From: Thermodesulfovibrionia bacterium
Lineage (GTDB): Bacteria; Nitrospirota; Thermodesulfovibrionia; UBA6902
Reading direction: 5' to 3'
NCBI GenBank assembly: GCA_947259645.1
Contig: CAMYND010000001.1
Coordinates: 11,169-75,168 of the forward strand
DNA length: 64,000 bases
Positions 3,205 through 55,087 of the stretch are shown in pieces (the stretch's first letter is position 1; each line of letters opens with the position of its first letter). The notes below the pieces were generated by a model. The model made no database searches, was not told the origin of the DNA, and saw only the letters and a list, made by a program, of their open reading frames with translations. The position numbers and the translations under genes are program-made.

Positions 3205-3216
3205 TTTGTGCCTTTC

Positions 3217-4736: not shown

Positions 4737-4767
4737 AGGCAGACCAGCCTTCAGCAGGCTGATCTGC
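4737..4767 (-). other. 12-bp stem/7-nt loop hairpin between small ORF and rSAM gene (possible attenuator/processing site)
   Basis: GGCAGAUCAGCC-ugcugaa-GGCUGGUCUGCC on the transcript strand, followed by a moderately U-rich stretch. Confidence 0.35.
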
Positions 4768-4786
4768 CAACCCGACACTTCATTGA

Positions 4787-4927: not shown

Positions 4928-4931
4928 GACG

Positions 4932-7621: not shown

Positions 7622-7623
7622 TA

Positions 7624-8622: not shown

Positions 8623-8631
8623 AGTGCTCCC

Positions 8632-11210: not shown

Positions 11211-11224
11211 TATCCGGTACTCTC

Positions 11225-12463
11225 CTAAACAATCAGAACCGCTGCAATAAATCCAAGAAATGAGGTCACTTTTGTAACAGTCAGGGCGGAACGGGCCGCC
11301 TCGACGTACGTCTCATGTCTGCTCCTGGTTTTATCGGAATTCTGTATTGTGTCATCCCCGATATAGGGTTTGTTTATTACAGTGCCTTCATAGACTGACG
11401 GTCCCCCCAGCCTTACCCCCAGGGCGCCTGCCATAGCAGCCTCAGGAAAGCCGCTGTTCGGGCTCGCATGCCTCTTTCCGTCTCTGGTCATTATTGTAAA
11501 AGCGCTGCTTCCGTTTTCCAGCTGCAGCGCCTGAAGTTTCCTGTCACAGGGAGCCAGGATTTTCATCAAAAAACGCGCCAGCCTGCCTTCCTTGTCTTTG
11601 AATCGTAGCGACCCTTTTGCAACAATCTGCATTACAATGGTTATTACATATACAGCTGTGGCTATCAGCACCCCTGTTATCCGGGCAGGAATGTAATTGG
11701 CAATGTCATCAAGCTTTGCTGAGGCCCACCCTAAACTCCCGTATTTTTCATTTTTATATCCCACCATTGAATCAAGGGTGTTTATCGCCTTGTACGCCAT
11801 GGCGAGGGGCAAGCCACCGATGACAAAGTAAAAGAGCGGGGCAATGATCCCGTCAGAGGCATTTTCAGCAACTGTTTCAATCGCTGCCCGCAATACACCC
11901 TCTTCTTTCAGTGAATCCGTATCTCTTCCCACTATCATTGACAATGACTGCCTGCTCTGCTGGATGTCACCCTGTTTTAGCGCGTCAATGACTGCATGGG
12001 CTGAAAGGAGGAGATCGCGCGTCGCTATTGTCGTGGAGACAAGATAAACATATATGCCAAAGAGTACGTATGACACTACCGGCTGAACAGGGATGTTCAG
12101 GAGAAGATTGCTGAGAATAAAAAAGAGCAGATACGTTGCGCCCACAACAACAGCGGGCAGGATTACCCCGGCCCATTGTTCCAGGATTTTTAGCGTCGGT
12201 TCCTTCCCCTTTCGATGAAAGGGCGCAACCAGTTCAAAAATATTCATACCCTTCTCCGGGTCTTCATTCTCATCACCATTCCCCTGATTGTTCTTCGTGC
12301 TGTTTTTAACTGCATGGTCATAGTCCTCTGCCTCTTTTCTCAGATAATTCTCCAGCTTCTGTATTGCCCCTCCGATAAAAGAGACCGGGTGGGGCATCCA
12401 CCTGGGATCTCCGATTATGAGGTCCACCAGATATGCAAGTGTAAGGGCAAGGGTCTCGGTCAT
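11225..12463 (-). CDS. cbiB: Adenosylcobinamide-phosphate synthase CbiB (with two lineage-specific insertions)
   Basis: N-term LAYLVDLIIGDPRWMPHPVSFIG, core IVGRDT...AIETVAENASDGIIAPLFY...AMAYKAINTLDSMVGYK; 412 aa vs ~320 typical. Confidence 0.8.
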   Translation of the reverse strand: MTETLALTLAYLVDLIIGDPRWMPHPVSFIGGAIQKLENYLRKEAEDYDHAVKNSTKNNQGNGDENEDPEKGMNIFELVAPFHRKGKEPTLKILEQWAGVILPAVVVGATYLLFFILSNLLLNIPVQPVVSYVLFGIYVYLVSTTIATRDLLLSAHAVIDALKQGDIQQSRQSLSMIVGRDTDSLKEEGVLRAAIETVAENASDGIIAPLFYFVIGGLPLAMAYKAINTLDSMVGYKNEKYGSLGWASAKLDDIANYIPARITGVLIATAVYVITIVMQIVAKGSLRFKDKEGRLARFLMKILAPCDRKLQALQLENGSSAFTIMTRDGKRHASPNSGFPEAAMAGALGVRLGGPSVYEGTVINKPYIGDDTIQNSDKTRSRHETYVEAARSALTVTKVTSFLGFIAAVLIV

Positions 12464-14061: not shown

Positions 14062-14064
14062 AAC

Positions 14065-14712
14065 CTATGCCACAAAATTCATATGCCTGATTACGGGATA
14101 GTCCCACAGTTCAATCACATTTAATGCTGAAAAATCCTGTTCAATCCTGAATATATTTTCCAGGGGAATACCGAGAAGCTCACACAGGATCACCCTGTTT
14201 ATTCCGCCATGGGCAACGAGCGCTATCTGTTCACCATCATGCCTTGAAACTATTTCATGAAACGCCTTTATTGCGCGGTCTCTCACAGCCAGGGTGCTTT
14301 CACCTTCGAGAGGACTGTACTGCAGAGGATTTTCAGCCCAGGCCTTGAAGGCATCGGGCCACTTCTCTTTTATCTCGTCAAAACTCATCCCTTCCCAGAC
14401 ACCGAAATTACGCTCTTTCAATCCATCCGTAATCACCGGCTTGAGTCCAAAAGGGGCGGCAATGATCTCTGCACTTTTACGGGCACGGCTCAGGTCCGAA
14501 CAATAGACCGCTTGCAACTCCCCGCTGACCGGGCCAGAACCTGATTTGCGGCCCAGGTGGCGGGCAAGTCTCTTTACCTGCTCAATGCCATTTTCTGAAA
14601 GAGGAACATCAATGTGGCCCTTGTACCTGCGGGAATCAGCATCCTCTGTTTCGCCGTGTCGTATAAGATAAATTTTTGTCATCATCGTCTGCTCAACAAC
14701 ACTGCGCTTCAT
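14065..14712 (-). CDS. cobC: Alpha-ribazole phosphatase CobC (histidine phosphatase family)
   Basis: IYLIRHGET...RHG/His phosphatase motifs, operon context between cobS and cobQ. Confidence 0.7.
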   Translation of the reverse strand: MKRSVVEQTMMTKIYLIRHGETEDADSRRYKGHIDVPLSENGIEQVKRLARHLGRKSGSGPVSGELQAVYCSDLSRARKSAEIIAAPFGLKPVITDGLKERNFGVWEGMSFDEIKEKWPDAFKAWAENPLQYSPLEGESTLAVRDRAIKAFHEIVSRHDGEQIALVAHGGINRVILCELLGIPLENIFRIEQDFSALNVIELWDYPVIRHMNFVA

Positions 14713-14730
14713 CGCGCAGCTCCATACCGG

Positions 14731-15531
14731 TCAGTCCAGACTGACTTTATTGATTACCGCGATCAACAGAAATAGCAGTACCGCAATTTCGTTTACCGCC
14801 CCGAATGAATCACCTGTCATCCCGCCAAATTGTTTCTTGAAAAACCATACAGCCCCAAAACTGAAGCCAAAAAGAAGGGGCATCGCAAACATGAGGTAAA
14901 ACATGATAAGTGAAAACTGCCCCGTTGCTATGCAGAGCATGAGAACAAAGAGGACTGTTGCCGCAGTAGCTGTCAGGAGCTCCTTTTTCCCGGTCTGCTC
15001 ACTAAAGATTCTTCCCAGTCCATCCTGCCTCGCCGGCCTGCTGTAACAGGCTGCCGGGACCATTGCCCAGCGAGACAGCAGGGGAACGGTTATAAGGATC
15101 ACAAAGTAAACAGGTCCGTTTGAATGAAAGTAAAGAGCATTGAGCAGCACATATTTCAGCAGGAGCGTCATCACTATAGCGATAACTCCCATGGGGCCAA
15201 CTGTGCTGTCCTTCATGATCAAGAGCTTTTTTTCTACTCCACTCCGCGACGCAACTGCATCAATGGTGTCGGAGAGACCATCCAGATGCAGACCGCCGTT
15301 CATCACCGTAATGATAAGTACCAACAAGGCATTGGCAAGCTCTGACTGAAAAAGGCCCAGAAAGATCGTAGCTGAAAATGCAAGGAGAATACCCTCAGCA
15401 AGTCCCACCCAGGGGAAAACAGCTGTAGCCTTTCCCACTTCGCTGTCAGGCAGCTCTCCCAGGTCTTTCACCGGAATAATCGTTAAAAACTGAAATGCCA
15501 GAAAAATACGGTTCATAATCAAAACGTTCAA
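14731..15531 (-). CDS. cobS: Cobalamin synthase (adenosylcobinamide-GDP ribazoletransferase) CobS
   Basis: 266-aa polytopic membrane protein with LAFQFLTIIP N-terminus typical of CobS, operon context. Confidence 0.8.
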   Translation of the reverse strand: MNVLIMNRIFLAFQFLTIIPVKDLGELPDSEVGKATAVFPWVGLAEGILLAFSATIFLGLFQSELANALLVLIITVMNGGLHLDGLSDTIDAVASRSGVEKKLLIMKDSTVGPMGVIAIVMTLLLKYVLLNALYFHSNGPVYFVILITVPLLSRWAMVPAACYSRPARQDGLGRIFSEQTGKKELLTATAATVLFVLMLCIATGQFSLIMFYLMFAMPLLFGFSFGAVWFFKKQFGGMTGDSFGAVNEIAVLLFLLIAVINKVSLD

Positions 15532-15550
15532 CGCTTATGCCTGAAAATAC

Positions 15551-16621
15551 TCAGGCATTCTTTTCCGCGACCTCTGCTTCCGCAAATGTCGCCATCTCTT
15601 TATAAATCTTCAGACCACCCTCAATGATCATCATAGCCAGTGCAGCACCGGTTCCCTCACCGAGTCTCATATCAAGATCAAGAATCGGCCTGAGCCCTAT
15701 TTTTTCCAAAATAAACTTATGTCCAGCTTCCCGGGACATGTGAGCAGCAAACATGTAATCCTTTGTCTTCGGCTCTATCAGCCATGCCATCAATGCGCCT
15801 GCAGTCGATATGAAGCCGTCTATTACCACAGGTATTTTCTCCGCTGCTGCGCCCAAGACTAGCCCGGCTATGCCGGCAATCTCGGCACCGCCCACTTTGG
15901 AAAGAACATCAACAGGATCAGAAGGATCAGGGTTGTTGAGCGCTAACGCATCCTTAATTACCGTGACCTTGCTCGTCCAGACTTTATCATTGATTCCGGT
16001 GCCTCTGCCTGTAATATCCTCAACAGGCCTGCCTGTAATAACTGATGTAATCGCACTTGAGGGTGATGTGTTGGCAATTCCCATTTCACCTGTCCCGAAA
16101 ATCCGATATCCTTTCGCAGCATACTCATGTGCCAGATCAATACCAACCTGAATACACTGTTCGGTTTCTTCACGGGTCATGGCCGGGCCTTTCCGCATAT
16201 TCCTTGTGCCGGAAACTACTTTCTTTATGAGCAAGGGCACGCTGCTCCGGGCCGCTGCCTCGGTAAAATCATAATCAACACCGATGTCTACAACGACCAC
16301 GTCTGCACCCGCGTGCCGGGAGAGAACATTAATCCCTGCTCCGCCGTGAATAAAATTCAATACCATCTGGGAGGTCACCTCTTTTGGGAAAGCGGACACA
16401 CCCTCGTCTGCGACACCGTGGTCACCGGCAAAGGTGAAGACAACTTTTTTATCAAGGTCAGGCATGGTCTGTTCTGAAATAGCAACAAGCTGCTTTGCAA
16501 ACTCCTCAAGCCTTCCCAGGCTTCCCTGCGGCTTGGTGAGATTATCGAGGCGCTCCTGAGCCTGTCCGGCGAATGTTCCGTTCGTATTTGTTATGCGTGA
16601 ACACGTAGACTGTAATGACAT
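15551..16621 (-). CDS. cobT: Nicotinate-nucleotide--dimethylbenzimidazole phosphoribosyltransferase CobT
   Basis: 356 aa, [12 protein letters not shown] and GEMGIANTS motifs typical of CobT. Confidence 0.85.
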
Positions 16622-16651
16622 ATGTACCTCCGCGATTTCATTATTATATGG

Positions 16652-17194
16652 TTACCCTTTAATCTTCAGCGGTATGCCCGCCGTGACCAGGTATACTTCA
16701 TCAGACAGCTCTGCTATTTTTTGATTTAAGGCACCTGATAAATCCCTGAACGTTCTTGCCAGTTTATTTTCCGGCACAATGCCAGTACCAACTTCATTGG
16801 ACACCATAAAGAGATCAAAGTCATCTGCATGTTTCAACCCGCCCAGAAACGAAGTAAATTCGCTGATGCTGTCTTCAGGCAGCTCATTATCCGTGCCTGC
16901 TGCCTCAAACTTCAGCAATATATTGGAGAGCCAGATGGTCAGGCAGTCCAGAAGAACAACACGGTACCTGCCCTGCAGTGTATTGATAAGAGGAGAGAGC
17001 TTCAGAGGCTCTTCAAGGGTGTCCCATTCATCGCTTCTTTCCGCTTTATGCTTTCCAATCCGTTCCCTCATTTCATCATCAAGGGCTTCTGCTGTGGCGA
17101 TGTATGCCTTCTGCCCCTCAATTTCTGAGGCCCTGGTCAGGGCAAAAAGGCTCTTACCACTCCGTGCCCCGCCTATGATAAAAGTGATTTTCAA
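16652..17194 (-). CDS. cobU: Adenosylcobinamide kinase / adenosylcobinamide-phosphate guanylyltransferase CobU
   Basis: 180 aa, P-loop FIIGGARSGKS, first gene after riboswitch. Confidence 0.85.
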   Translation of the reverse strand: MKITFIIGGARSGKSLFALTRASEIEGQKAYIATAEALDDEMRERIGKHKAERSDEWDTLEEPLKLSPLINTLQGRYRVVLLDCLTIWLSNILLKFEAAGTDNELPEDSISEFTSFLGGLKHADDFDLFMVSNEVGTGIVPENKLARTFRDLSGALNQKIAELSDEVYLVTAGIPLKIKG

Positions 17195-17289
17195 ATTCTC
17201 GATCCGCAGATATTAAAGATTATTCAGATTATCTGATACCAAAATTAATACTTCTGAGTTATTCATTGATTCAACCACGTTAAAAAATA

Positions 17290-17344: not shown

Positions 17345-17565
17345 TCACATCCTCTTCCCTCGAAGGTTTTGCGTGAGGTCACGTTCAGGCAGGTCTTCTG
17401 GCTTTCCCGATCTCTACCAGCCTTCCCTGTAACTTTACAAGTGGCTTCAGTGAGTAGAGACTATCAATTCCGAACAAGTGGAAATCGGGATTACAGCGGC
17501 GGGTCCGCTCCAGCATTTCACTGGATTCCCCTTTAAGCCCATAGAGGGCACCTGAACAGTTTATG
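17345..17565 (-). promoter_or_regulatory. Cobalamin (AdoCbl) riboswitch
   Basis: Transcript strand contains AAAGGGGAAUCCAGUGAAAUGCUGGAGCGGACCCGCCGCUGUAAUCCCG and B12 box GGGAAAGCCAGAAGACCUGCC (plus-strand 17388-17403), matching RF00174 consensus features. Confidence 0.8.
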
Positions 17566-17577
17566 TCTCAGTCTAGA

Positions 17578-40462: not shown

Positions 40463-41134
40463 ATGTTCAAGGAATTTAAAACCACTGTAGGAAAAAAACT
40501 TATCATGGCCCTCACAGGCCATCTGCTCATAATATTTGTTATAGCCCATGTAATAGGAAACTCTACGATTTATTTCGGAGGGCTCAATTCCTATGCACAG
40601 CATCTTCATGACCTTGCGCCTCTGGTCTGGACCTTCCGGTCTGTAATGCTCATAACGCTGCTGATTCATCTGCTATTGGGAATTCAACTGACACTGGAAA
40701 ACCGCGCGTCAAAACCTGACACCTATGCTGTCAAAAAGAGCCTCCGTGCAACAACGGCTTCCCGGAATATGATATGGACAGGAGCTCTTACAGGGGGGTT
40801 TCTCCTGTACCACCTGCTTCACTTCACGTTCCAGGTAACAAATCCCGATATTTCCGCCAGAGCGAACCTTGATTCCCTCGGAAGGCCTGATGTCATGGTC
40901 ATGGTAGTGTCAAGTTTTCAGAATATAATTATCTCTCTCGTTTATATTGTGTCAATGGCTGTAGTGGCCCTCCATCTTGTTCATGGTATACAGAGTTCTT
41001 TTCAGTCTCTTGGTTTGAACAATAATAAAACCCTGGGGATCATTCAAAAAGCAGGGTTAATCGTTTCGATTATTTTATTTGCGGGATACGCGCTGATTCC
41101 CTTATCAATACTCGTTGGCATGGTGAAAGGATAA
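40463..41134 (+). CDS. sdhC: Succinate dehydrogenase/fumarate reductase cytochrome b membrane subunit (type B)
   Basis: 223 aa, 5 TM with conserved His residues, immediately upstream of flavoprotein gene. Confidence 0.65.
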
Positions 41135-41141
41135 GACAGAT

Positions 41142-43055
41142 ATGATACTTGACGGTAAAAGTCCATCGGGTCCACTCTCTGAAAAATGGGACAAGAGGCG
41201 CCAGGAGATGAAACTCGTAAACCCTGCGAACAAGAGAAAATATAAGATTATTATTGTTGGAACCGGCCTTGCAGGCGCATCAGCCGCTGCAACCCTCGGG
41301 GAGCTGGGCTACAATGTGGAGGCCTTCTGTTATCAGGACAGTCCGCGTCGGGGACATAGCATCGCAGCCCAGGGAGGCATTAATGCGGCCAAGAATTACC
41401 CCAGTGACGGGGACAGTATCTTCCGCCTTTTCTACGACACGATCAAAGGAGGAGATTTCAGGGCGCGGGAGGCAAATGTCTACCGCCTTGCAACACTCAG
41501 CAATAACATTATTGATCAGGCAGTGGCTCAGGGCGTACCCTTTGCGCGGGACTACGCGGGGTATCTTGACAACCGATCCTTTGGTGGCGCGCAGGTATCA
41601 CGAACTTTTTTTGCCCGGGGACAGACAGGCCAGCAGCTGCTTCTCGGCGCCTATTCCGCCCTTTCACGACAGATAAAGGCGGGCACGGTCACGCTGCACT
41701 CCCGGACAGAGATGCTTGACCTCGTGGTAATTAATGGTGAAGCAAAGGGGATAACTGTGCGTGACATGGTAACCGGTGAAATTCGGTCTTATGCTGCTGA
41801 TTCGGTCTGCCTCTGCACAGGCGGCTATGCAAATGTCTTTTACCTCTCGACAAATGCGATGGGTTCAAATGTCACCGCTGCATACAGGGCATATAAAAAA
41901 GGTGCATTTTTCGCAAATCCCTGTTTCACCCAGATTCACCCGACCTGCATCCCTGTTTCAGGTGACCACCAGTCCAAGCTGACACTCATGTCTGAATCTC
42001 TCAGAAATGACGGCCGGTGCTGGGTTCCCAGGGAAAAGGGCGATCAACGCATCCCGGACGAGATCCCTGAAGAAGAGCGTGACTACTATCTCGAACGGAA
42101 ATATCCGAGCTTCGGTAATCTTGCCCCCCGTGATATAGCATCCCGTTCAGCAAAGGAAGTCTGTGATGAAGGACGGGGAATCGGGACGAGCGGTTACGGT
42201 GTGTATCTTGATTTTGCTGACGCTATCAATCGTCTGGGAGCAGGTGTTATAAAAGAACGATACGGAAACCTTTTTGAAATGTATGAGAAAATTACCGGTG
42301 AAAATGCCTACAAGCAGCCGATGCGCATATACCCGGCCCCTCATTACACCATGGGCGGGCTCTGGGTTGATTATAATCTGGAGAGTACAATTCCGGGGCT
42401 CTTTGTGCTTGGGGAAGCGAACTACTCTGACCATGGCGCCAACCGTCTCGGTGCAAGCGCGCTGATGCAGGGACTTGCTGACGGCTACTTTATCATCCCA
42501 GGCACCATTGCCCATTATCTTGCTCAAACAGGGCCGGGCAAGGCAGGTATCGACCACCCCGAGTTTCAAAAATCCCGGGAAGGTGCCCATGACCGAATGC
42601 ACCGGCTCCTGTCCATTAACGGCAAGAAAACTGTCAACGAGTTCCACCGGGAACTGGGAAGAATCATGTGGAACAAGGTAGGCATGGCCAGGACAGAAAA
42701 AAGTCTGAACAGCGCGTTACAGGAGATTCCCCGGCTCCGTGCCGAGTTCTGGGAAAATGTCACCGTACCCGGCAGCGGAGCAGCGTTGAACCAGGAACTG
42801 GAGAAAGCCGGCCGTGTTGCTGATTTCCTTGAGTTCGGAGAGCTTATGGCGCGGGATGCCCTGCTTCGTAATGAGTCCTGCGGCGGTCATTTCCGTGAGG
42901 AATATCAGATGCCTGACGGTGAGGCAAAGCGCGATGATGAACATTTTTCATATGTCGCCGCATGGGAGTTCACCGGAGAAGACAGCACACCTGAAATGCA
43001 CAAAGAACCGCTGACCTTCGAAAATGTAGAACTGGCGGTAAGGAGTTACAAATAA
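41142..43055 (+). CDS. sdhA: Succinate dehydrogenase/fumarate reductase flavoprotein subunit
   Basis: [17 protein letters not shown]-binding, SIAAQGG (covalent FAD His), [15 protein letters not shown]-terminal motif. Confidence 0.9.
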
Positions 43056-43795
43056 TGAACCTCACTTTGTTTGTCTGGAGACAGAAAGGCCCTGAAGACC
43101 CCGGCAGACTAAAGCAGCTGGAAGCCAGGGACATCAGCCCTGATATGTCCTTTCTTGAAATGCTCGATCTGGTGAATGAAGATTTAATCAAACAAGGGAG
43201 AGACCCGATAGTCTTTGACCATGACTGCCGTGAAGGCATCTGCGGTACCTGCTCTCAGGTCATAAACGGTGTGCCACATGGTCCGGAAGAACGGACTACC
43301 GTGTGCCAGCTCCATATGAGAAATTTCAAAGACGGAGACACTATTTACATTGAACCCTGGAAGGCAAAGGCATTCCCTGTAATTAAGGACCTCATCGTTG
43401 ACCGCAATGCATTTGAGCATATCATCCAGTCCGGGGGCTACATTTCTGCCCATACCGGCGGCGTTCCTGACGCCAATGCCATACTTATAGCAAAACATGA
43501 TGCAGATACCGCAATGGATGCTGCCGAGTGTATCGGCTGCGGTGCCTGTGTGGCAGCCTGTCCCAACGGCTCGGCAATGTTATTTGCCGCAGCAAAGGTC
43601 ACCCAGTTTGCCGTGCTTCCTCAGGGGGCAGTTGAAGCAAAAAAACGGGTGAATTCCATGATCAGCTCAATGAAGAAAGAGGGCTTTGGAAACTGTTCAA
43701 ACCATTACGAATGTCAGGCTGTCTGCCCCAAGGGGATCAAGGTCTCCTTTATCGCAAAGCTTAACAGGGAATTTATAGCAAGCTTGAAAACCTAG
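43055..43795 (+). CDS. sdhB: Succinate dehydrogenase/fumarate reductase iron-sulfur subunit
   Basis: [10 protein letters not shown] 2Fe-2S motif, [12 protein letters not shown] and CQAVCPKGI ferredoxin motifs. Confidence 0.85.
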
Positions 43796-43974: not shown

Positions 43975-45861
43975 ATGAATATAGAGGACAAAAGAAGCTT
44001 TAAGCGCTACAGAACCAGAACTGACTGCGAAATCATGGTGAACGGAGAGGCCATAGCAGGAAAGGTCTTCGACTACTCCGATGGCGCGGGTGTTGTTGTT
44101 GAAAATGTACCCCATTTCAGCCGCGGAACCAAAGCTGGCCTGACAATACCTTTTCTTGGGATGATCTTTACAGGCGAAGTAGCATGGTCACGGGAAAGCG
44201 GAAAATATATCAGGGTCGGATTTAAAAATGTTGGTAATTTTGCTGGAAATCTGAGCCATCACAAGTTGGCTGATATCCTCATAGGCATCCAGAGGAGCGG
44301 CTGCACCGGGGTCCTTGGCATTACAAACGGATCTGCGGTAAAGAAAGTGTTTATAAAGAACGGGGATATCGTATTTGCTACGTCTAACAGAAAAGATGAG
44401 CGCCTTGGGGAAATCCTCGTAAAGAAGGGGCGAATCACCCTCACAGAATACTATAACGCCTCCACATTAATGGTTAAGTCCGGGCAGAAGATGGGAAAGG
44501 TTCTTGTAGAGCTCAACCTGCTCAAACCCAAAGAACTCTTTCAGGCACTGAATGAACAGATAGAAGAAATAATCATGAGTCTTTTTGATATTAATGAGGG
44601 GACCTTTGAGTTCAAAGAGGAACAACTTGCGGCAGAGGAACTCGTAACCCTTAAAATCAGCACTGCTAACATTATTTACCAGGGAATGAAGAGGATTGAT
44701 AACTTTATTTATATCAAGGAGATGTGCCCGCCTGATAACGCTATGTTAGGGCTCTCCCAGAACCCGCTCAATATTTTTCAGTCTCTCAGTCTTTCTCCTG
44801 CTGACAAAGATATTCTCTATGCTGTAAGCAGAAAAGCCACGTTGAAAAAAATACTGTCAATTTCCTCCCTCAAAGACTTTGAAACACTGAAAACAGTCAG
44901 CGCACTGCTCAGTATCAGGTTTATTAACATACTGAGAGAAGAGGGTGATTCCCTGGAGCTTTCACTTGATGAGATCCTTGGTGAAATAAGTGAAAGCACT
45001 CCGCAGGAATTCCTGGATAAAACAGAACAGATGTTCGCCCGGTGCGAAACACTGGGACATCATGAGATTCTCGGAGTGGATAAGGGCGCGCCTCCTGACG
45101 CGATCAAAAGAGCCTACTTCAGGCTATCGAAAGAATACCATCCTGACAGACATTTTTCTTACCCGGAGTATGATCTGAAAGGAAAGTTAGTCAGAATCTT
45201 TTCTTATTTGACTGAGGCATATGAGATACTCACTGAGCCAGAGCAAAAGGAAGAGAGTAAAGTGGCTGTTACTGATTCAGGGACAGAGACTTACGGAGCA
45301 TCAGCAGAAAAGACTCCTGTCACATCCGAAACAGAGAATGCCTGGCAAAAGAAGCCTATTACGCACAACGACAATTTTGACAGTGCACCACCGGGTAAAA
45401 CAGGTATTCAGGTCAGCGGGAAAAATGAGCACACAGAGTCATATGCGGAAGGCCTTGGAATCTCGGGATACCATGACGCAGTGGCTACTGACCTTGCATC
45501 ACCAGTCCCGGAACCAATAACCGAAGAAACACAAGATAGCCCATCCGCTACTCACGATCAGTCTCAAACACCGTCTAATGACATAAAAACAAGTACAAAA
45601 GAAAAAGCAGTACTTGCATCGGCAGGAGAAACAGTATACATCGGGCCGAAAAAAACGAACAAAAAACTGATATCAGCTATCGCCCTGATTCTTATCAGTA
45701 TTATTTCATTGGTAACTTTTTTCCACAGTCAGTCCCGAAAGGATACTGATTTATACCCCGGGCCGATGACTGTTCATACCTCTTCTGTTGAGATGTCGGA
45801 GAAATCTGATAACGTGCCTCAGTTCCGCGATGATGCCTTTGATAAGATACTGAAACGGTAA
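43975..45861 (+). CDS. Multidomain protein: N-terminal PilZ-like, DUF4388-like, J-domain (DnaJ), C-terminal TM segment
   Basis: KRYRTRTD + DYSDGAG (PilZ-like); HEILGVDKGAPPDAIKRAYFRLSKEYHPDR J-domain with HPD; hydrophobic LISAIALILISIISLV near C-term. Confidence 0.55.
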   Translation: MNIEDKRSFKRYRTRTDCEIMVNGEAIAGKVFDYSDGAGVVVENVPHFSRGTKAGLTIPFLGMIFTGEVAWSRESGKYIRVGFKNVGNFAGNLSHHKLADILIGIQRSGCTGVLGITNGSAVKKVFIKNGDIVFATSNRKDERLGEILVKKGRITLTEYYNASTLMVKSGQKMGKVLVELNLLKPKELFQALNEQIEEIIMSLFDINEGTFEFKEEQLAAEELVTLKISTANIIYQGMKRIDNFIYIKEMCPPDNAMLGLSQNPLNIFQSLSLSPADKDILYAVSRKATLKKILSISSLKDFETLKTVSALLSIRFINILREEGDSLELSLDEILGEISESTPQEFLDKTEQMFARCETLGHHEILGVDKGAPPDAIKRAYFRLSKEYHPDRHFSYPEYDLKGKLVRIFSYLTEAYEILTEPEQKEESKVAVTDSGTETYGASAEKTPVTSETENAWQKKPITHNDNFDSAPPGKTGIQVSGKNEHTESYAEGLGISGYHDAVATDLASPVPEPITEETQDSPSATHDQSQTPSNDIKTSTKEKAVLASAGETVYIGPKKTNKKLISAIALILISIISLVTFFHSQSRKDTDLYPGPMTVHTSSVEMSEKSDNVPQFRDDAFDKILKR

Positions 45862-47704: not shown

Positions 47705-47780
47705 GGGCCGCTAGCTCAGTTGGTAGAGCAACGCCCTTTTAAGGCGTGGGTCGTTGGTTCGAATCCAACGCGGCTCACCA
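47705..47780 (+). tRNA. tRNA-Lys (anticodon UUU)
   Basis: GGGCCGCTAGCTCAGTTGGTAGAGC...CCTTTTAAGG anticodon loop...GGTTCGAATCC T-arm...CCA; cloverleaf folds. Confidence 0.9.
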
Positions 47781-47785
47781 TTGAT

Positions 47786-47863
47786 GTCCCCATCGTCTAG
47801 TCTGGCCTAGGACACCGGCCTTTCACGCCGATAACAGGGGTTCAAATCCCCTTGGGGACGCCA
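47786..47863 (+). tRNA. tRNA-Glu (anticodon UUC)
   Basis: GTCCCCATCGTCTAGTCTGG...CCTTTCACG anticodon loop...GGTTCAAATCCCC...GGGGACGCCA; acceptor stem complementary. Confidence 0.9.
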
Positions 47864-47875
47864 TGTAATTTTTAA

Positions 47876-47905
47876 GGGGTTACGCTCTGTAGCCCCTTTT
47901 CTTTT
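47876..47905 (+). terminator. Intrinsic terminator after tRNA pair
   Basis: GGGGUUAC-gcucu-GUAGCCCC stem followed by UUUUCUUUU. Confidence 0.7.
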
Positions 47906-48885: not shown

Positions 48886-51090
48886 ATGAGTAAAAAAGAG
48901 ATGATAATGAGACTTAAACAACTGGTGCGTAATTCAATCTACATTGCTGTTTTAGTCTTTCTGACAATGCTCAATACCCATGCTCAGGACAACACGGGCA
49001 AAGATGGCACTCTGCAGTATCTCATTTCCCTGCATGAAAAAAATCCTGCAGTTGTGGATTACATCATACCGGTAGCTAAGCATTATAAGAAAAGCGCGCG
49101 CTATGATAAAGCAGCTGCGTGGTTCATGAAAGCCGCAGATATTCAGCCTGACAATACAGACATACTTTTTGAAATAGGCATTCTGCTGTCATGGACAGAT
49201 AACTATCTGAGTGCAATAGAATATTTTGACAAAATTCTTACGATAGAGCCAAACCACGATGACGCAAAACTCGCCAAAGCCAGAGTTCTGAGCTGGCAGG
49301 ACAAACGCGCTGAAGCCTTGTCCTTAACTGAAGAGGTCATTGAACATAATCCCGGATATTTGGATGCATATGAACTGAAGGCCCGCATCCTTACGTGGGA
49401 AATGAATTATGATGAGGCCATTGAGATATATTCACAGATGCTCCAAATAAAACCGGACAGCAAAAATGCCCGCAAGGGGTTAGTAGATATTATTTCCTTT
49501 CAGGGTAACTATGGAGAGGCTGTCTCAAAGTATAGAAGCCTCCTCGCCCAGTACCCTGAAGACATTGACCTGATGAACACACTGGGAAAGGTTCTGCTCT
49601 GGCAGGGAGAATACGGAGAGGGCATCTCAATATTAGAGAAATCTTTCATATTAGATGAAAGACGAAAAGAGACCGTAGAACTGTTATCCCAGGGGTTTCT
49701 GTGGAGCAAAAGATTTTCGGAAGGTATTGAGTTTCAAAAAAGAATCATCGAAAAAAGCCAAGACGATTTTCAGGCCACCTATAATATCGCCGCTCTCTAT
49801 GAAGCTATGGGAAAATATGACCAGGCAATAGTCTGGTATGAAAAGGCCGCTGAATTAAAGAGAGATGACCCTCAGGTAAATGCGAAGCTGGGACTGCTCT
49901 ACAGCCGAACTAATAAAATTGATCAGGCGGTTACATCATTTCAGCGGTCTTTAAAAATCCGTGAAAATGATGTAGATAACCTGATAAACCTCGGGCGGGT
50001 CTACAGCTGGGAGAAAAGAATAAATGAATCAATAGGATTATACCAGAAGGCCCTTGTTCTTGACCCCCTCAACCAGGATGCACATATCGGTCTGGGCAGG
50101 ACCTATTATTATAATGGCCAATGGGACCTGGCAGAAGAACAGTTTCGTAAAGTACTGGAAATCAATCCGCTCAATAAGGAAGCATTTACAGAGATCGCGA
50201 GAATCAGATCTCTCATGAGGCCTTCACTCATTACCAGTTATCGATATTTCTCATTCCGGAATTATTCAAGCGATTCAGACGAATTAATAGGTAAATCATT
50301 TCGCCACGAAGTATTTGAGACCTTGAGTCATAATTTCTCTTCAGCATTATCAGGCGAGATTCAATACAGGCGTATACATGAAAAAAGCTATGAATCGGGA
50401 GAGAGGCTCTATTCGATGAAGGCCGATGAATATTCGGGATATTTAAGTGCCAGGCTCAATAAATATCTGCAGGTACGGGGCAAACTTATCGCGGGAACAT
50501 ATAAAGTCGAGAGTGATTTCTATACACTGAAAAACAGGGACTTGCTTTCAGGGTTTGTGATTCTCGATTACAGCAAGGACAAATGGGATATAAATGCCAA
50601 TTTTATAAGGGAACCGCTTTTTCCGGTCTACGAGGGTGATGAGTTATGGATTAAACATACAAACAGCTATGGGGGTTCTCTCCGGTATAATTACTCAGAG
50701 GACCTGAGTTTTTTCACTACCTTTAATTACAAAAAAGATTACGCCTCCTATAAGAGAAATGATTATTGGGCAGGCTTCGATTATGTCCTGCCAAGGTTTA
50801 AGAAACTCGAGTTTGAATATTTCTTCAGACATCTCACGAATCCACAGGACAACCTGCATTCAGCGAGTCTCATATATACGGATGCGTTCGAGAAGCTCAA
50901 TTACTTTTCCTCCTATAACCTTGAAAGCAGCTCCTTATTTAATGAAATTACGCAGACCATTAATTTATTTTTCTATTACGATTTAAAAGATAATATCAGT
51001 GCAAATGCAGGCCTGGCATATAGCCGAAACCTAAAATCAGACAAAGACGAAGCCCTTGAAATAAATGCGTATATATCATACAGATTTTAA
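48886..51090 (+). CDS. TPR-repeat protein with C-terminal outer-membrane beta-barrel (PgaA/BcsC/PrsT-like EPS export component)
   Basis: 734 aa; N-terminal TPR repeats; C-terminal ~300 aa with alternating aromatic pattern ending ...YISYRF (C-terminal Phe typical of OMP barrels). Confidence 0.6.
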   Translation: MSKKEMIMRLKQLVRNSIYIAVLVFLTMLNTHAQDNTGKDGTLQYLISLHEKNPAVVDYIIPVAKHYKKSARYDKAAAWFMKAADIQPDNTDILFEIGILLSWTDNYLSAIEYFDKILTIEPNHDDAKLAKARVLSWQDKRAEALSLTEEVIEHNPGYLDAYELKARILTWEMNYDEAIEIYSQMLQIKPDSKNARKGLVDIISFQGNYGEAVSKYRSLLAQYPEDIDLMNTLGKVLLWQGEYGEGISILEKSFILDERRKETVELLSQGFLWSKRFSEGIEFQKRIIEKSQDDFQATYNIAALYEAMGKYDQAIVWYEKAAELKRDDPQVNAKLGLLYSRTNKIDQAVTSFQRSLKIRENDVDNLINLGRVYSWEKRINESIGLYQKALVLDPLNQDAHIGLGRTYYYNGQWDLAEEQFRKVLEINPLNKEAFTEIARIRSLMRPSLITSYRYFSFRNYSSDSDELIGKSFRHEVFETLSHNFSSALSGEIQYRRIHEKSYESGERLYSMKADEYSGYLSARLNKYLQVRGKLIAGTYKVESDFYTLKNRDLLSGFVILDYSKDKWDINANFIREPLFPVYEGDELWIKHTNSYGGSLRYNYSEDLSFFTTFNYKKDYASYKRNDYWAGFDYVLPRFKKLEFEYFFRHLTNPQDNLHSASLIYTDAFEKLNYFSSYNLESSSLFNEITQTINLFFYYDLKDNISANAGLAYSRNLKSDKDEALEINAYISYRF

Positions 51091-51937
51091 ATTAGTCATT
51101 ACCATTCTTATCCTGTTATTTTTCTCACCATCTGATTATCTGTATGCGCAAAATACATTGTCCATGCAGCTTTATCATGAGGACACAGGAGGAGGGACTG
51201 ATATCTGGGCAGGAGGAGACAGTTTTATCCTTTCCAATGGAAGGCTGAAGAGTCAAAGCAGGATATTTCTGGAAGAATTTCCGAATACGCGAAAGGTAAT
51301 CCTGATCTGGTCTGGAGAGGTCAAAAATGATAACCCGCGTTTTCAGCAGATAGAGCTCATCCCTGCTCGTAAAAAAAATGTCTCAATAAAAGCGGATAGC
51401 TGTTACAGGGCTGATTCTACTGGTTTGCTCTACTCCTGTGTTGCTGATATTACTCCGCATTACAACGGGAAGGGAGACTACATTATACAAGGGCTTCAAA
51501 GTGACCACTTGACCAGGAATGATCAAAGCGATCCTTTTTCTGTAGCAGGATATGCCATATTGGTACTCTACGAAAACTCTGAGCAGGGGAATCGTACGGT
51601 TAGGGTCTATGCCGGATTAGATGTGCTCGGGCCCGGTGAAATGCATGATATTTCGATTCTGGATAACGGCTCAGATGCATCCCTGTCAAAGATGGTTCTT
51701 GTAGGCGGTCATGGCCGAAAGGGCAATGGAAGTGCAAATCTACTCAATGGAACAAGTATAAGTCAATCAGAAGACTGGAATGGATCTTCAGGGGATTACT
51801 GGGATGTGGATCTGTTTGAAAACATAGATGTTGACCGGAATAGAGCAGCAAAAAACGGTTTAATCCTTTCTATTGATACTGTCCTGCAATGGGTTTATCC
51901 AGTGGTTATTGCCGCTGTATTTGAGGAGAAAGACTAA
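51065..51937 (+). CDS. Secreted hypothetical protein
   Basis: Signal peptide (ITILILLFFSPSDYLYA), no known motif; EPS-locus context. Confidence 0.35.
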   Translation: MRIYHTDFKLVITILILLFFSPSDYLYAQNTLSMQLYHEDTGGGTDIWAGGDSFILSNGRLKSQSRIFLEEFPNTRKVILIWSGEVKNDNPRFQQIELIPARKKNVSIKADSCYRADSTGLLYSCVADITPHYNGKGDYIIQGLQSDHLTRNDQSDPFSVAGYAILVLYENSEQGNRTVRVYAGLDVLGPGEMHDISILDNGSDASLSKMVLVGGHGRKGNGSANLLNGTSISQSEDWNGSSGDYWDVDLFENIDVDRNRAAKNGLILSIDTVLQWVYPVVIAAVFEEKD

Positions 51938-51938
51938 G

Positions 51939-52298
51939 ATGAAAAAAATAATTTTCTGTACGTTCGTTAGTGGGTTGATAGTATTTGCAATAAATATTAG
52001 CGGATCTTTTTTGCTGAACTCGGAAAAAGACAGTTTCAACAGGACCAGCCTCTCTGATCAAATTGGCATCGTGTCTGTTCTTTCAGCAGGTACTGTATAC
52101 GCTGCAAGCGATAAATCCCAGGGTAAAGCATTGGGCCATTTAAAAGATAAAAACAAGAAGCCGAAAAAGCCAAAGAAACCAAAAAAAGATAAAGGCAAAG
52201 GCCCATCCCTGCCAGCCCTGCCAATGGTATCGTCTGTCATACTGGGACTCGGGGCAGTAGGTTGGGGCAGGTATTTTTTCAGAAAACAGAAGGAATAA
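51939..52298 (+). CDS. Small secreted protein with Lys/Pro-rich spacer and PEP-CTERM-like (variant LPALP-CTERM) sorting signal
   Basis: Signal peptide; KDKNKKPKKPKKPKKDKGKG; C-terminus PSLPALP-MVSSVILGLGAVGWG-RYFFRKQKE = motif + TM helix + basic cluster; directly upstream of exosortase. Confidence 0.5.
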   Translation: MKKIIFCTFVSGLIVFAINISGSFLLNSEKDSFNRTSLSDQIGIVSVLSAGTVYAASDKSQGKALGHLKDKNKKPKKPKKPKKDKGKGPSLPALPMVSSVILGLGAVGWGRYFFRKQKE

Positions 52299-52301
52299 GT
52301 A

Positions 52302-53150
52302 GTGAAGAGACAATACGCTATAGTTATGGGCATATATTGCCTTGTTTACTGGAGTATATTTCATAATACCCTCACCTGGATAGCGCATTCGTGGAGGCAC
52401 AACTCTTTTTATACCCATGGATTCATAATCTTCTTTCTCTGCCTTGGGCTGCTCCTGATAAACAGTGCGAAGCTGAAAACAACTAGTTTTCAGCCAGGCT
52501 CAGCACTGGTCCCTGGCATCGCATTTTTAATTATGGTCTCTTTCGGTGTACTGCTGCGTTTTCATTACTTAATCGGGCTTTCCTTTATCACTGGCGCAAT
52601 CAGTCTGAACAGACTGCTCGTGGCAGAGGAAAATAAGGAGTTTATGCAGCTTCCGTTCTGGTTGATGGTGATTGCCATCCCCCTGCCCTTCCTGAATGAG
52701 GTTGCGGGCTATATGAGTTATGCCGCTTCAAAGACCGTAGCTGTCATCATGGGGGCGCTATTTTCGTCAGTAGAAGTAGATGGGATATCACTGATTATCC
52801 CCGGTGGTGTTGCATTTGATATAGATACCAGTTGCAGCGGAGCTGGCTCAATCCTTGCTTTGATCACTATTGCCATATTGTGGCTTGCATCATTTAAGGA
52901 CAATCCGAAAATTACCTCTGTTTTAATCGTCCTTGCTTTGCCCGTTGGATTTTTCACAAATGTATTACGGATCGTTTTCGTATTTATGGTTGCCAATACA
53001 TGGGGAATGCAATATGCCATACAATTCTGGCATGACTTTGCGGGCTATATCTTCTACATTATTTCACTGGGAATTTTATTCATCAGCTGGATTGCCATAA
53101 AACGAATCAGCAAGGACAAAATCAGGTTGAGAAGGCTCATCATAGCATGA
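52302..53150 (+). CDS. Exosortase (Xrt family) transmembrane transpeptidase
   Basis: 282 aa, ~8 TM, conserved Cys in DIDTSCSGAGSI and Arg in FFTNVLRIVFVF; adjacent to CTERM-signal protein and EpsI-like gene. Confidence 0.6.
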   Translation: MKRQYAIVMGIYCLVYWSIFHNTLTWIAHSWRHNSFYTHGFIIFFLCLGLLLINSAKLKTTSFQPGSALVPGIAFLIMVSFGVLLRFHYLIGLSFITGAISLNRLLVAEENKEFMQLPFWLMVIAIPLPFLNEVAGYMSYAASKTVAVIMGALFSSVEVDGISLIIPGGVAFDIDTSCSGAGSILALITIAILWLASFKDNPKITSVLIVLALPVGFFTNVLRIVFVFMVANTWGMQYAIQFWHDFAGYIFYIISLGILFISWIAIKRISKDKIRLRRLIIA

Positions 53151-55087
53151 CAATCAAACAATACTCTTTATTAATTATAGTGATATTTATCGCCTGTACC
53201 GGTAATGCCCTTGCTTCCCGGATAAATACTTTTACGACAGATATCGCCTATTATTTTGCAACATCACATGAGGGCAAGATTAAGGCCTCCTCGGATTTTC
53301 TTGATAATGATCAGATCCTTCAAATCCCCTTTGAGCTTGGTAATTGGGACGGTTATGATCTGGAGCATGATGATGAGAATCTCTCTTTTTTCAGGGCCTA
53401 TGTTGATCAACGCGATGGAGCGAAGATATATTTCATTGCAGTACATGCGCTTACCGAGAGCAAGCTGCACACTCCTGAAGTCTGTTACCTCAACGATAAC
53501 TGGAAGATAAGCAAAAGAGGATATAATAAAATCGCATTAGCTGATAAGCATTTTGAAACACGTTATTTTATTGCCGAGAAAGATGAATGGAAACATTACC
53601 TGTCGTACTGGTTTATGTGGCGTGATTCACGGCGACTTATGAGTGACGGCGCTGTTATGTTTCGCATAGCGGTCAGTATGGACAACATCTCTGAAGAGAA
53701 AGCCAAAGCCAAGTTACGGGATTTCATAATAAACCTGAGCGGCTATTCCGCGGACCAGAAAAATACTCCGGGAAAGAAAACGATACAGGAGACGCCGTTA
53801 TCAGAGCCATTCATAAACAGGGACAGTGAATATTTTGATACACGGAAAGAGACATTACAGTGGCTCCAAAAACAGATTGTACCAAACGAGATCGTGAGAT
53901 CTCCGGCAAACGACAGAAGGAATCTTATCTTAAGTTATAAATTACCAAAAGATGCCGATGCCTATCGCTACATATTCAGCAAATCATCACTCTATGACAA
54001 TGCACTCGCTGTGATAGCATTTACTATTGAACATCAATTTGAAACCGCGAGTAAGATTATTGATGCTATAATGCGCATGGGCGGGGAAGATGGGGACCTC
54101 TTTTTTACATTCAACACTCATAATAGCTGGCCAAACAGTAAAGACCGCGAGGGCGCGATTATTAGGTCAGGAGCATCAGCCTGGGCAGGTTATTCGATCG
54201 TCTTCTATTTAAGAGCACTGCTGTTGAGTGATCCCGATGCTATTGAAAAGAGCTCTGAACTGCAGGGTTACCTCAAGTATGCTGAGTTGATAGCTGATAA
54301 TATGCTGCAGCGCAGTGTAAATGATACAAGAGACCCCAGATATGGGCTGATTACCGGTGGCAATGGATCTTATCGGCTCTTTTTAAATGACGAAGCAGAT
54401 GTAATTGAAGAGAGGTTTGTGCCGGGAGAGGTTCTCTGGACCAGCATGGAGCATAACATTGATATGTATTTCTACCTGAGAGATCTTGGAGATGTTTCCG
54501 GCAATCAGGATTATTCATTGGCTGCGGAGGCCATGGGGGAAAGTCTGCTTCAAAAAAGCTGGAACACGAGATTTGAGCAGTTTAACCGGGGACAGAGGCT
54601 GGATGGCCCTGATACTGTCAGGGCCCTGGATTGCGCCTCATGGGGGGTGTTTCTGCTTTTGGCAAGAGAAGAAGAAGAAAAAGCATATGCTGCATTATCA
54701 GCTGCAGAAAATTACAGAAGCATAACAGACAGGGGGTTCGGCTATAAACCCTATATTGATAAACCCATATATGAAAATCGCAAGATAAACACATTTTATT
54801 TTCCCTCTAATCCTCAAAAAAACTGGACTGATCTTGAGATGATGTGGACCGAAGGGGCCCTCGGGGTTTCTCTGGCCAATATGCGCTTCAGGAATAATAA
54901 AAGAGCGAAGGACATTATCAGGGAAGTCCTGAAATACCGTTCTAAAAAGGGAGGGATAGCTTATTCATCCATACCTATTGCTCATGAGTTTTCCACTGCT
55001 CCTTCAGTAGCGCCTGCAGCGTGGCTTATTATTAATTTGGGTGAATTAGAGCAGAATAAGATAGCACAGCTATTCTGGAATCAATAA
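53147..55087 (+). CDS. EpsI-like exosortase-associated domain (N-term ~210 aa) fused to large alpha/alpha-toroid-like (glycosidase-like?) domain
   Basis: N-term signal/TM, HTPEVCY motif resembling EpsI family; C-terminal 430 aa helical-repeat domain of unknown function. Confidence 0.45.
   Translation: MTIKQYSLLIIVIFIACTGNALASRINTFTTDIAYYFATSHEGKIKASSDFLDNDQILQIPFELGNWDGYDLEHDDENLSFFRAYVDQRDGAKIYFIAVHALTESKLHTPEVCYLNDNWKISKRGYNKIALADKHFETRYFIAEKDEWKHYLSYWFMWRDSRRLMSDGAVMFRIAVSMDNISEEKAKAKLRDFIINLSGYSADQKNTPGKKTIQETPLSEPFINRDSEYFDTRKETLQWLQKQIVPNEIVRSPANDRRNLILSYKLPKDADAYRYIFSKSSLYDNALAVIAFTIEHQFETASKIIDAIMRMGGEDGDLFFTFNTHNSWPNSKDREGAIIRSGASAWAGYSIVFYLRALLLSDPDAIEKSSELQGYLKYAELIADNMLQRSVNDTRDPRYGLITGGNGSYRLFLNDEADVIEERFVPGEVLWTSMEHNIDMYFYLRDLGDVSGNQDYSLAAEAMGESLLQKSWNTRFEQFNRGQRLDGPDTVRALDCASWGVFLLLAREEEEKAYAALSAAENYRSITDRGFGYKPYIDKPIYENRKINTFYFPSNPQKNWTDLEMMWTEGALGVSLANMRFRNNKRAKDIIREVLKYRSKKGGIAYSSIPIAHEFSTAPSVAPAAWLIINLGELEQNKIAQLFWNQ

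Follow-up and report, generated by a model that had tools for sequence, protein, structure and literature searches.

A Candidate Dedicated Exosortase System with One Adjacent Target in a Genome of the Thermodesulfovibrionia

Introduction

Exosortases, whose existence was predicted in 2006, occur widely among environmental bacteria. To our knowledge, the attachment partner of bacterial exosortase products and the role of EpsI are long-standing questions. The present study concerns a pair of genes in a stretch of 64,000 nucleotides (hereafter “the window”) from a Thermodesulfovibrionia bacterium (GenBank assembly GCA_947259645.1, contig CAMYND010000001.1, forward-strand positions 11,169 to 75,168). 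One gene encodes a small lysine-rich protein, and the other, immediately downstream, encodes an exosortase; all coordinates given below are those of the window. An earlier note on this DNA had proposed that the two form a dedicated enzyme-substrate pair with a noncanonical C-terminal sorting signal.

Sortase-type signals are defined by a tripartite C-terminus (a motif, a transmembrane helix, and a basic cluster) together with an N-terminal signal (PMC3237569; bioRxiv 10.1101/2023.06.07.544157). In the generic definition of Haft, the sorting motif of an intramembrane enzyme abuts the helix (same sources). Pairings of an exosortase with its own tripartite signal are already known, in some cases with a one-to-one relationship.

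The XrtA/PEP-CTERM system (EpsH-EpsI of Methylobacillus) has much in common with the locus in the window. Both enzymes belong to the same superfamily (PF09721, TIGR04178), and among the named models it is that of XrtA that scores best; also shared are the Cys-x-Gly, Arg, and His residues, the tripartite logic of the signal, the association with polysaccharide genes, an EpsI-type partner encoded directly downstream, and a tetratricopeptide-repeat (TPR) protein with PrsT-like repeats. The differences are nonetheless substantial. XrtA/PEP-CTERM has dozens of dispersed targets with folded proteins as cargo, whereas here there is one adjacent target per genome, with no Pro-Glu-Pro and with a predicted cargo peptide of ca. 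33 residues. The EpsI protein bears an extra 420-aa (alpha/alpha)6 domain, and the TPR protein reaches 137 bits against a cut-off of 312 for PrsT (TIGR02917), besides the sub-cut-off scores for XrtA, TIGR02602, and TIGR02914 that are given below. XrtD/VPLPA-CTERM (TIGR04152, TIGR03370) likewise features a proline-rich xLPA motif that abuts the transmembrane helix and an EpsI-like domain associated with the exosortase. However, XrtD is a single fusion protein of ca. 486 aa, the window exosortase scores 65 bits against its cut-off of 400, and the motif in the present family is GPS[LV]P[AG][ILV]PM, preceded by [KR].

The logic of one target next to its enzyme, with a sporadic taxonomic distribution, is also followed by rhombosortase/GlyGly-CTERM single-target pairs, MrtJ/JDVT-CTERM, and the Gram-negative sortase/LPXTG cassettes, but these dedicated systems employ unrelated enzymes (rhomboid, CPBP/Rce1-like, and sortase folds) and other motifs and cargo. 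A homologous enzyme that can serve as a mechanistic template is archaeosortase A, which acts on PGF-CTERM; that of Haloferax volcanii is the sole family member for which removal of the helix has been experimentally coupled to lipid attachment (bioRxiv 10.1101/2023.06.07.544157). That system is archaeal and has many substrates, including the S-layer glycoprotein, whereas the present one occurs in a diderm and has one target. The ArtC and ArtE models score 34-36 bits on the window exosortase.

Set beside these systems, the locus probably represents a dedicated exosortase sorting system of one enzyme and one target, of an unnamed subclass, housed within a conserved operon of the envelope/exopolysaccharide type. 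The enzyme clade, the signal, the near-absent cargo, a fusion of EpsI to an (alpha/alpha)6 domain, and the five-gene cassette that holds them appear to be undescribed and are absent from NCBIfam release 20 (June 2026). A literature search returned no description of the cassette; the 2012 survey of exosortases and archaeosortases lay outside the scope of that search, and a brief mention of the clade there is possible.

Results

The small protein and its C-terminal tag

The features of the small gene are as follows.

51939-52298, + strand: predicted exosortase substrate (preprotein), 119 aa, MKKIIFCTFVSGLIVFAINISGSFLLNSEKDSFNRTSLSDQIGIVSVLSAGTVYAASDKSQGKALGHLKDKNKKPKKPKKPKKDKGKGPSLPALPMVSSVILGLGAVGWGRYFFRKQKE; assigned from the open reading frame (ORF) and its conservation
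51939-52103, + strand: N-terminal export region, including the signal-peptide h-region (aa 4-18), up to V53-Y54-A55; hydropathy and conservation
52104-52199, + strand: Lys-rich low-complexity “cargo” or spacer, aa 56-87, ASDKSQGKALGHLKDKNKKPKKPKKPKKDKGK
52200-52226, + strand: signature motif of CTERM type, G88-P-S-L-P-A-L-P-M96; conservation
52227-52295, + strand: transmembrane helix (VSSVILGLGAVGWG; conserved G-x-G-A-x-G) and basic cytoplasmic tail RYFFRKQKE; hydropathy and conservation

The protein begins with a basic N-terminus, the signal segment at aa 4-18, and a weakly hydrophobic second stretch that ends in V53-Y54-A55. The Lys tract follows (aa 56-87; 14 K+R versus 3 D+E), then the motif, a hydrophobic helix (aa 93-110), and the basic tail. 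The earlier note had described a 119-aa protein with PSLPALP, a helix, RYFFRKQKE, and a spacer of the KKPKKPKK type, and every detail of that description proved accurate. V53, Y54, and A55 were invariant in the alignment of homologues. By analogy, VYA was taken as the putative signal-peptidase site because it directly follows the h-region in short homologues (P0154, L005), where it closes the signal peptide.

The tag was the best-conserved part of the small protein in orthologues from at least three phyla, so the C-terminal motif is recurrent, as the note's proposal implied. The block KDKGKGPSLPALPM was 100% identical across 10 close homologues; within the same group, identity was 86% in the transmembrane helix, 53% in the linker, and 66% in the N-terminal region. 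When the DNA of eight variants was aligned, all changes in the motif codons were synonymous third-position changes save one Leu-to-Ile exchange (L026), and the Lys tract upstream of the motif was free in both length and sequence. Because the motif codons differ synonymously while the Lys tract changes freely, the motif appears to be conserved by selection on the peptide sequence. The family consensus of the motif was [KR]GPS[VL]P[AG][ILV]PM. Conservation across 24 members revealed all the elements of the tripartite definition: a motif abutting the membrane segment, the transmembrane helix itself, a basic C-terminal cluster, and an N-terminal signal. In the 64-kb window, the small protein was the sole ORF with a Pro-containing motif, a transmembrane segment, and a basic C-terminus.

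That the tag is noncanonical, as claimed previously, was supported by hidden Markov model (HMM) searches. The window protein matched none of the CTERM models in NCBIfam release 20, and TIGR02595 (PEP-CTERM) gave no match to it at E <= 10; Pro-Glu-Pro is absent, with GPSLPALPM in its stead. Among the 24 family members, TIGR02595 matched three weakly (E 0.013; members not specified), the VPLPA-CTERM model matched none at E <= 10, the generic LPXTG_anchor model matched 10 with E >= 0.003, and stray weak matches to the GVDTG and Loki-CTERM models had E-values of ca. 0.1. Identity of the tag as PEP-CTERM or VPLPA-CTERM was rejected by these HMM searches, in which short CTERM models are hard to detect through the HMMER filters and a very weak resemblance could escape. 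The most diverged relatives carried PEP-like motifs, namely APELP (L005) and APEM (L034), and the tag probably derives from PEP-CTERM because it is these most diverged forms that look PEP-like.

The region between VYA and the motif was 18-57 aa long in 21 family members (median 33), ca. 59% charged, and composed of K/G/D, K/P, or R/G repeats; its net charge had a median of +6. Homologues differed greatly in the length and sequence of this region, and none of the family members carried a folded domain. The predicted cargo of ca. 33 residues seems to be little more than a polycationic linker, which is unusual among exosortase substrates. The closest analogy to so tiny a cargo is the EF0750-type LPXTG proteins, which are very small and sortase-dependent; several family members matched them weakly. 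Ten close homologues of the small protein were found in public metagenomes and metagenome-assembled genomes (MAGs). When 1.84 billion representative proteins were searched with a profile, 15 clusters were returned at E <= 1e-3, all of 89-143 aa, and none of these was a large protein with the same tail.

The Lys tract was hypervariable even among close relatives (L024, L026, L027, and L009 compared with the window). Its variants included KKPKKPKK, runs of 12-14 Lys residues, RDRDRDREKRKK, and (GKALGHDKDKA)x2. The A-rich short repeats that encode the tract, which in the window have a period of 9 nt, suggest that variation in cargo length may be driven by slippage.

The exosortase

The gene that follows encodes the predicted enzyme.

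52302-53150, + strand: exosortase of an unnamed subfamily, 282 aa, GTG start
52833-52835, 52968-52970, and 53031-53033: codons, confirmed in the DNA, of the predicted catalytic residues Cys178, Arg223, and His244, respectively

This ORF begins 3 nt past the stop codon of the small gene. The note's assignment of the neighbor as an exosortase homolog with a CSG Cys and an Arg was confirmed: the protein scored 114.3 bits against Pfam Exosortase_EpsH (PF09721; gathering threshold (GA), 25.7) and 61.7 bits against the exosortase/archaeosortase signature TIGR04178 (cut-off, 23), and the superfamily match was seen in all 10 of the clade members. The motifs were C178-S-G, N220-VL-R223, and W-H244-D-F. 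In an alignment of 15 exosortases with identities down to 18-24%, Arg223 and His244 were invariant, and Cys178 was kept in 14. The Cys (in Cys-x-Gly), Arg, and His residues are the proposed catalytic triad that defines the family (PMC1569441). A Kyte-Doolittle scan, which is crude and no topology predictor, located about eight (8-9) hydrophobic segments in the protein.

The earlier note had also named two exosortase models, TIGR02602 and TIGR03109, as a check. Although the superfamily models were passed, these two cut-offs were not reached: TIGR02602 (8TM_EpsH) gave 66.4 bits versus 105.55, and XrtA (TIGR03109) gave 87 versus 208. The same was true of every named subfamily. Matches were obtained with Xrt/Crt/Art models of NCBIfam release 20 (XrtA, B, C, D, E, H, O, S, T, V, W, and Z; CrtA and CrtC; ArtB, C, and E), and the window exosortase reached the cut-off of none of them; apart from XrtD, examples are XrtV (57 versus 313), XrtT (53 versus 250), and XrtW (44 versus 425). 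For nine relatives, there were E-values only (the best being 2.2e-28, for XrtV), which do not indicate subfamily membership. Scores below the cut-offs are what a new exosortase subclass should be expected to give. In public annotations, the enzyme is called an “exosortase/archaeosortase family protein” and the small protein a “hypothetical protein”.

In a public record of the exosortase (P0012), the protein has 274 aa and begins at an internal Met, at window position 52326. The GTG at 52302, which yields 282 aa, is the likelier start because homologues conserve the N-terminus MKRxYAxxMG.

A sister clade was recognized in which Ser replaces the catalytic Cys of the exosortase (GEPSSGIQS or GAPSSGIQS; L004:9193-10020, L037:9193-10017, and P0068). 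Its small genes (L004:8906-9196 and L037:8909-9196) encode proteins of 95-96 aa with a His/Cys-rich segment, AEAHHKPxHxCxGxKC, and the target motif PPTVSE[VF]PIxYM followed by a transmembrane helix and a basic tail. To judge from these residues, the enzyme of this clade would be an exosortase with a serine nucleophile or else a pseudo-enzyme, and its cargo may bind metal.

Pairing of enzyme and target

In every locus examined, and in several phyla, the small gene lay directly upstream of the exosortase gene. These loci included the Nitrospiraceae chromosome CP070644.1 (L001), an Elusimicrobia MAG (L002/L003), Candidatus Lindowbacteria (L005/L006), L035, and the sister-clade genomes of 3-4 Mb (L004, L037). 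Where metagenome contigs reached the upstream sequence, the pair was adjacent in 10 out of 10. There was one tripartite ORF per locus. The motifs, with the identity of the accompanying exosortase to that of the window, were as follows.

GPSLPALPM: close homologues, 57-77%
GPSVPGIPM: L002, 45%
GTTIPGAPM: L033, 41%
PPGAPEMNG: L034, 31%
APSAPELPG: L005, 23%
PTVSE[VF]PIxY (including PTVSEVPIEY): L004/L037 clade, 23%

On these comparisons, the tag motif evidently diverges in step with the exosortase.

The back-translated pattern [KR]GPS[LV]P[AG]xPM[AVI][AST] was scanned against 185,579 species-representative genomes. Of 17 matches, 14 were out-of-frame noise in GC-rich genomes, and three were real C-terminal signals, in an uncultured member of the Nitrospiraceae (L009), in Elusimicrobia (L017), and in CP070644.1 (L023), the last being a complete chromosome of 2.49 Mb. 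Each of the three carrier genomes had exactly one real match, and it adjoined the exosortase, in agreement with the note's reading of one substrate and one sortase. In Haft's operational definition, a dedicated system has a single target per genome that adjoins the enzyme and regularly co-occurs with it (PMC3237569; bioRxiv 10.1101/2023.06.07.544157). A dedicated, one-to-one sorting system in this sense is supported for the present pair by the sequence comparisons, because there was a single real motif match per genome and it was always next to the exosortase.

The EpsI-(alpha/alpha)6 fusion

The next gene downstream overlaps the exosortase stop codon.

53147-55087, + strand: EpsI-(alpha/alpha)6 fusion, 646 aa; its first 4 nt coincide with the end of the exosortase gene

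From N- to C-terminus, the fusion consists of a membrane anchor at aa 2-19, an EpsI/DUF3485 domain at aa ~26-200, and, after a linker, the (alpha/alpha)6 domain at aa ~230-646. The EpsI domain scored 33.2 bits against PF11984 (GA, 26.1) and 29.3 bits against TIGR02914 (cut-off, 42.8). The C-terminal ca. 420 residues had no match to a Pfam family or to a sequence in the Protein Data Bank (PDB). An AlphaFold2 (AF2) model of the fusion, made with an alignment of 60 sequences, had a predicted local distance difference test score (pLDDT) of 92 and a predicted TM-score (pTM) of 0.91. When this model was compared with the PDB in Foldseek, 205 matches were found at E <= 1e-3. Among the 50 of these that were listed, all were carbohydrate-active enzymes of the (alpha/alpha)6 fold, with hydrolases and phosphorylases in the majority. 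The matches were to enzymes of glycoside hydrolase (GH) families GH15, GH63, GH94, and GH76, the methylmannose-polysaccharide hydrolase MmpH, and AGE-type isomerases, with E-values from 1e-9 to 1e-6 at ca. 10% identity. The C-terminal domain aligned to MmpH with a TM-score of 0.77 on the target.

More than 136 relatives of the fusion protein were found. In the alignment, 36 columns were invariant, including D284, E435, H436, D439, D489, D495, E569, and many Trp residues. The (alpha/alpha)6 domain is probably catalytic because these acidic, His, and Trp columns are invariant; no specific CAZy family could be assigned to it, and the invariant acidic residues could not be mapped onto a known catalytic pair. 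P0068, P0095, and P0099 are triple fusions of exosortase, EpsI, and the GH-like domain.

The (alpha/alpha)6 domain also occurred as a stand-alone protein of ca. 450 aa in many genomes without EpsI (P0111-P0149; e.g. Spirochaetae and Bacteriovoracaceae MAGs). These proteins seem to constitute an uncharacterized glycosidase-like family that has no Pfam model.

The five-gene cassette

Two more genes precede the small gene.

48886-51090, + strand: TPR protein, 734 aa, first gene of the cassette; TPR Pfam matches
51065-51937, + strand: beta-rich secreted protein, 290 aa; overlaps the TPR gene by 26 nt

The order of the cassette is thus TPR protein, 290-aa protein, substrate, exosortase, and EpsI-(alpha/alpha)6 fusion, and the same order was found in all loci with the pair. 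The genes are tightly packed: two junctions overlap, by 26 and 4 nt, and the other two leave 1 and 3 nt between genes. These overlaps and short distances of 1-4 nt indicate that the five genes form a single operon. The cassette was present in Nitrospirota, Elusimicrobiota, and Lindowbacteria as well as in further uncultured lineages. Neither the cassette nor the GH-like fusion nor the linker-like nature of the cargo had featured in the earlier note.

The TPR protein has a signal-like segment at its N-terminus and gave sub-threshold matches to PrsT, PgaA, and BcsC in the TPR part only. The C-terminal ca. 280 aa, which end in ...AYISYRF, matched no family. Orthologues keep the position of the gene and have lengths of 653-777 aa; in L026, L029, and L030, for which the C-termini were read, they end in ...SYRF. 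The protein is a probable outer-membrane export or scaffold component. Among 11 orthologues of the 290-aa protein, 28 columns were invariant, with the motifs PGE, GGHGxKGNGSxNLLNG, EDWDGSSGxYWDVD, and LQWxYP. The only similarity detected for it was a weak one to DUF3344 (E >= 0.036, in 7 of the 11 members), and a search of its profile against PDB sequences gave no match.

In L002/3, L005/6, L035, and L037, the cassette was flanked by a processive-type synthase of glycosyltransferase family 2 (GT2), identified by its Glyco_trans_2_3 and Chitin_synth_2 matches, and by a HEAT-repeat protein. A GGDEF response regulator is additionally present in L005/6. A 650-aa protein resembling carbohydrate-binding module (CBM) family CBM30 was found in L005/6 and L004; a likely counterpart in L037 had no Pfam match. 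The presence of a complete exopolysaccharide synthase locus in the window was rejected, as tblastn located neither the GT2 nor the HEAT gene.

The extended loci of the relatives share a parts list with the Bcs cellulose system (the GT2 protein BcsA, the TPR and porin protein BcsC, and BcsZ, an (alpha/alpha)6 enzyme of GH8) and with the Pga system (PgaC/PgaA): alongside a processive GT2 synthase there is a TPR protein that probably has an outer-membrane domain, together with a glycosidase-like periplasmic (alpha/alpha)6 enzyme and, close by, a gene for a GGDEF regulator. The TPR protein of the window, however, scored 79 bits versus 367 for PgaA and 49 versus 858 for BcsC, and the sequence likeness is limited to the TPR repeats. 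Moreover, the Bcs and Pga systems have no exosortase or CTERM peptide, and the window has no synthase.

Genomic surroundings

Genes for tRNA-Lys(UUU) and tRNA-Glu(UUC) were located at 47705-47863 (+), ca. 1 kb upstream of the cassette, and are followed by a strong terminator-like hairpin at 47874-47898. The GC content of the cassette is 39-45% versus a window mean of 46.5%, and the flanking genes differ between genomes. The tRNA proximity, the slightly low GC content, and the varying flanks are compatible with a lateral transfer in which the cassette moved as one piece; as evidence for a genomic island next to tRNA genes, the drop in GC content is only slight.

Approximately 3 kb upstream of the cassette, at 43975-45861 (+), is a gene for a PilZ-DUF4388-DnaJ multidomain protein. 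It is a possible receptor of cyclic di-GMP, and a regulatory link to the cassette is conceivable. A cobalamin riboswitch (95.9 bits) at 17371-17570 (-) heads a long cluster for anaerobic cobalamin biosynthesis at 700-17200 (-), with genes for CbiD, CbiC/CbiX, CobQ/CbiA-type amidases, CobD, a CobT-like DBI_PRT protein, and radical SAM/SPASM proteins. A succinate dehydrogenase/fumarate reductase operon is found at 40463-43795 (+) and encodes the cytochrome b subunit, the flavoprotein, and the Fe-S subunit. TRAP transporters, a MacB-type ABC exporter, and two-component systems elsewhere in the window represent ordinary chromosomal context.

Discussion

Proposed mechanism

The following course of events is proposed for the pair. 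The 119-aa preprotein would be exported by Sec, and its signal peptide would be removed, probably after VYA. The protein would stay anchored in the inner membrane through its C-terminal helix, with RYFFRKQKE in the cytoplasm and GPSLPALPM placed at the periplasmic face of the membrane. The adjacent exosortase, with its predicted eight transmembrane segments, would recognize the motif, and Cys178, aided by Arg223 and His244, would cut. On the precedent of sortase A and archaeosortase A, the new C-terminus would probably be passed to an acceptor and not to water, i.e. the reaction would be a transpeptidation. The product, released or transferred, would be a polycationic Lys/Gly/Asp peptide of ca. 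33 residues. It would most likely be a component of the matrix or surface that is made and exported with a polysaccharide, perhaps binding or capping an anionic polymer. Its production together with a polysaccharide is suggested because EpsI is fused to a glycosidase-like domain and because genes for a synthase, a TPR protein, and a CBM protein occur in relatives.

Alternative explanations

The conservation of the transmembrane segment (G-x-G-A-x-G, 86% identity) goes beyond that of the usual disposable anchor, and the cargo is very small. Both points would suit a small protein that is never cleaved and instead serves as a permanent single-pass or hairpin subunit of an export or polysaccharide machinery in the inner membrane, its polycationic segment binding an anionic polymer or the membrane and its GPSLPALPM/transmembrane block docking the exosortase-EpsI complex; the Cys-to-Ser exosortases of the sister clade could, by the same token, be non-catalytic. 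Nevertheless, the window enzyme retains the full Cys/Arg/His set, the architecture agrees with the tripartite signal in every respect, with the motif abutting the membrane segment, and the motif co-varies with the exosortase clade. Further, Ser can act as a nucleophile, so the sister clade is no proof of inactivity. A permanent subunit is thus considered unlikely. It is very unlikely that the exosortase serves canonical proteins of the PEP-CTERM type elsewhere in the genome and that the adjacency of the small gene reflects mere co-regulation. The view of the source genome is limited to 64 kb, and PEP-like residues occur in L005 and L034, with the weak TIGR02595 matches in a few members; yet the adjacency is strict in all loci across phyla, the motif changes along with the enzyme, the exosortase falls far below the XrtA and XrtB cut-offs, and the window protein itself has no PEP-CTERM match. 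Finally, the A-rich tract of Lys codons yields several overlapping spurious ORFs on both strands, and the small ORF could be regarded as one more low-complexity frame that resembles a sorting signal by chance. The frame is uninterrupted in upwards of 20 independent contigs, which come from several phyla, the motif is invariant while the DNA changes synonymously, and 15 clusters were recovered from the protein collection. On this evidence of conservation, a chance or spurious ORF was rejected, its probability being negligible.

Several observations weigh against a dedicated pair that acts by cleavage in a polysaccharide context. The single-copy result depends on a strict pattern, from which substrates with a looser motif would escape, and the scanned collection excludes the genome from which the window derives. 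A cysteine nucleophile is not universal among these systems, because the sister-clade exosortases carry Ser. We know of no established moiety that bacterial exosortases in general attach. The GT2 and HEAT genes were not found by tblastn with the relatives' proteins in the window or in the 20-kb neighborhood of L001; because they are absent there, the polysaccharide link proposed for the Nitrospiraceae versions draws on the GH-like fold and on the relatives. The idea of a barrel in the TPR protein received no help from a PDB sequence search with its C-terminal 284 aa, which gave no match, and the single-sequence AF2 model of the 290-aa protein (pLDDT 37) was unusable. A dedicated system of one exosortase and one target still appears to be the likely explanation.

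Significance

That EpsI is joined to a glycosidase-like domain, and in certain relatives also to the exosortase, suggests that sorting and glycan processing are directly coupled. An extension of this idea is that the exosortase covalently joins the polycationic peptide to the polysaccharide of the operon, or that the peptide is an anchor or cap, with the EpsI-(alpha/alpha)6 protein presenting the glycan acceptor. This extension is speculative and unlikely to be correct. If it is true, EpsI proteins in general would be acceptor-presenting subunits of exosortases, and the one-substrate cassette would be the simplest natural system for identifying an exosortase acceptor.

There is also a gain for annotation, namely a sorting-signal class ([KR]GPS[VL]P[AG][ILV]PM, transmembrane helix, and basic tail) and an exosortase clade that is unnamed in current models; HMMs for the enzyme and the signal could replace many “hypothetical protein” calls in MAGs. 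With one enzyme and one adjacent target, the system is a potentially simple model for finding the acceptor of exosortase cargo, and a short polycationic peptide with its tag should be easy to track by intact-mass spectrometry.

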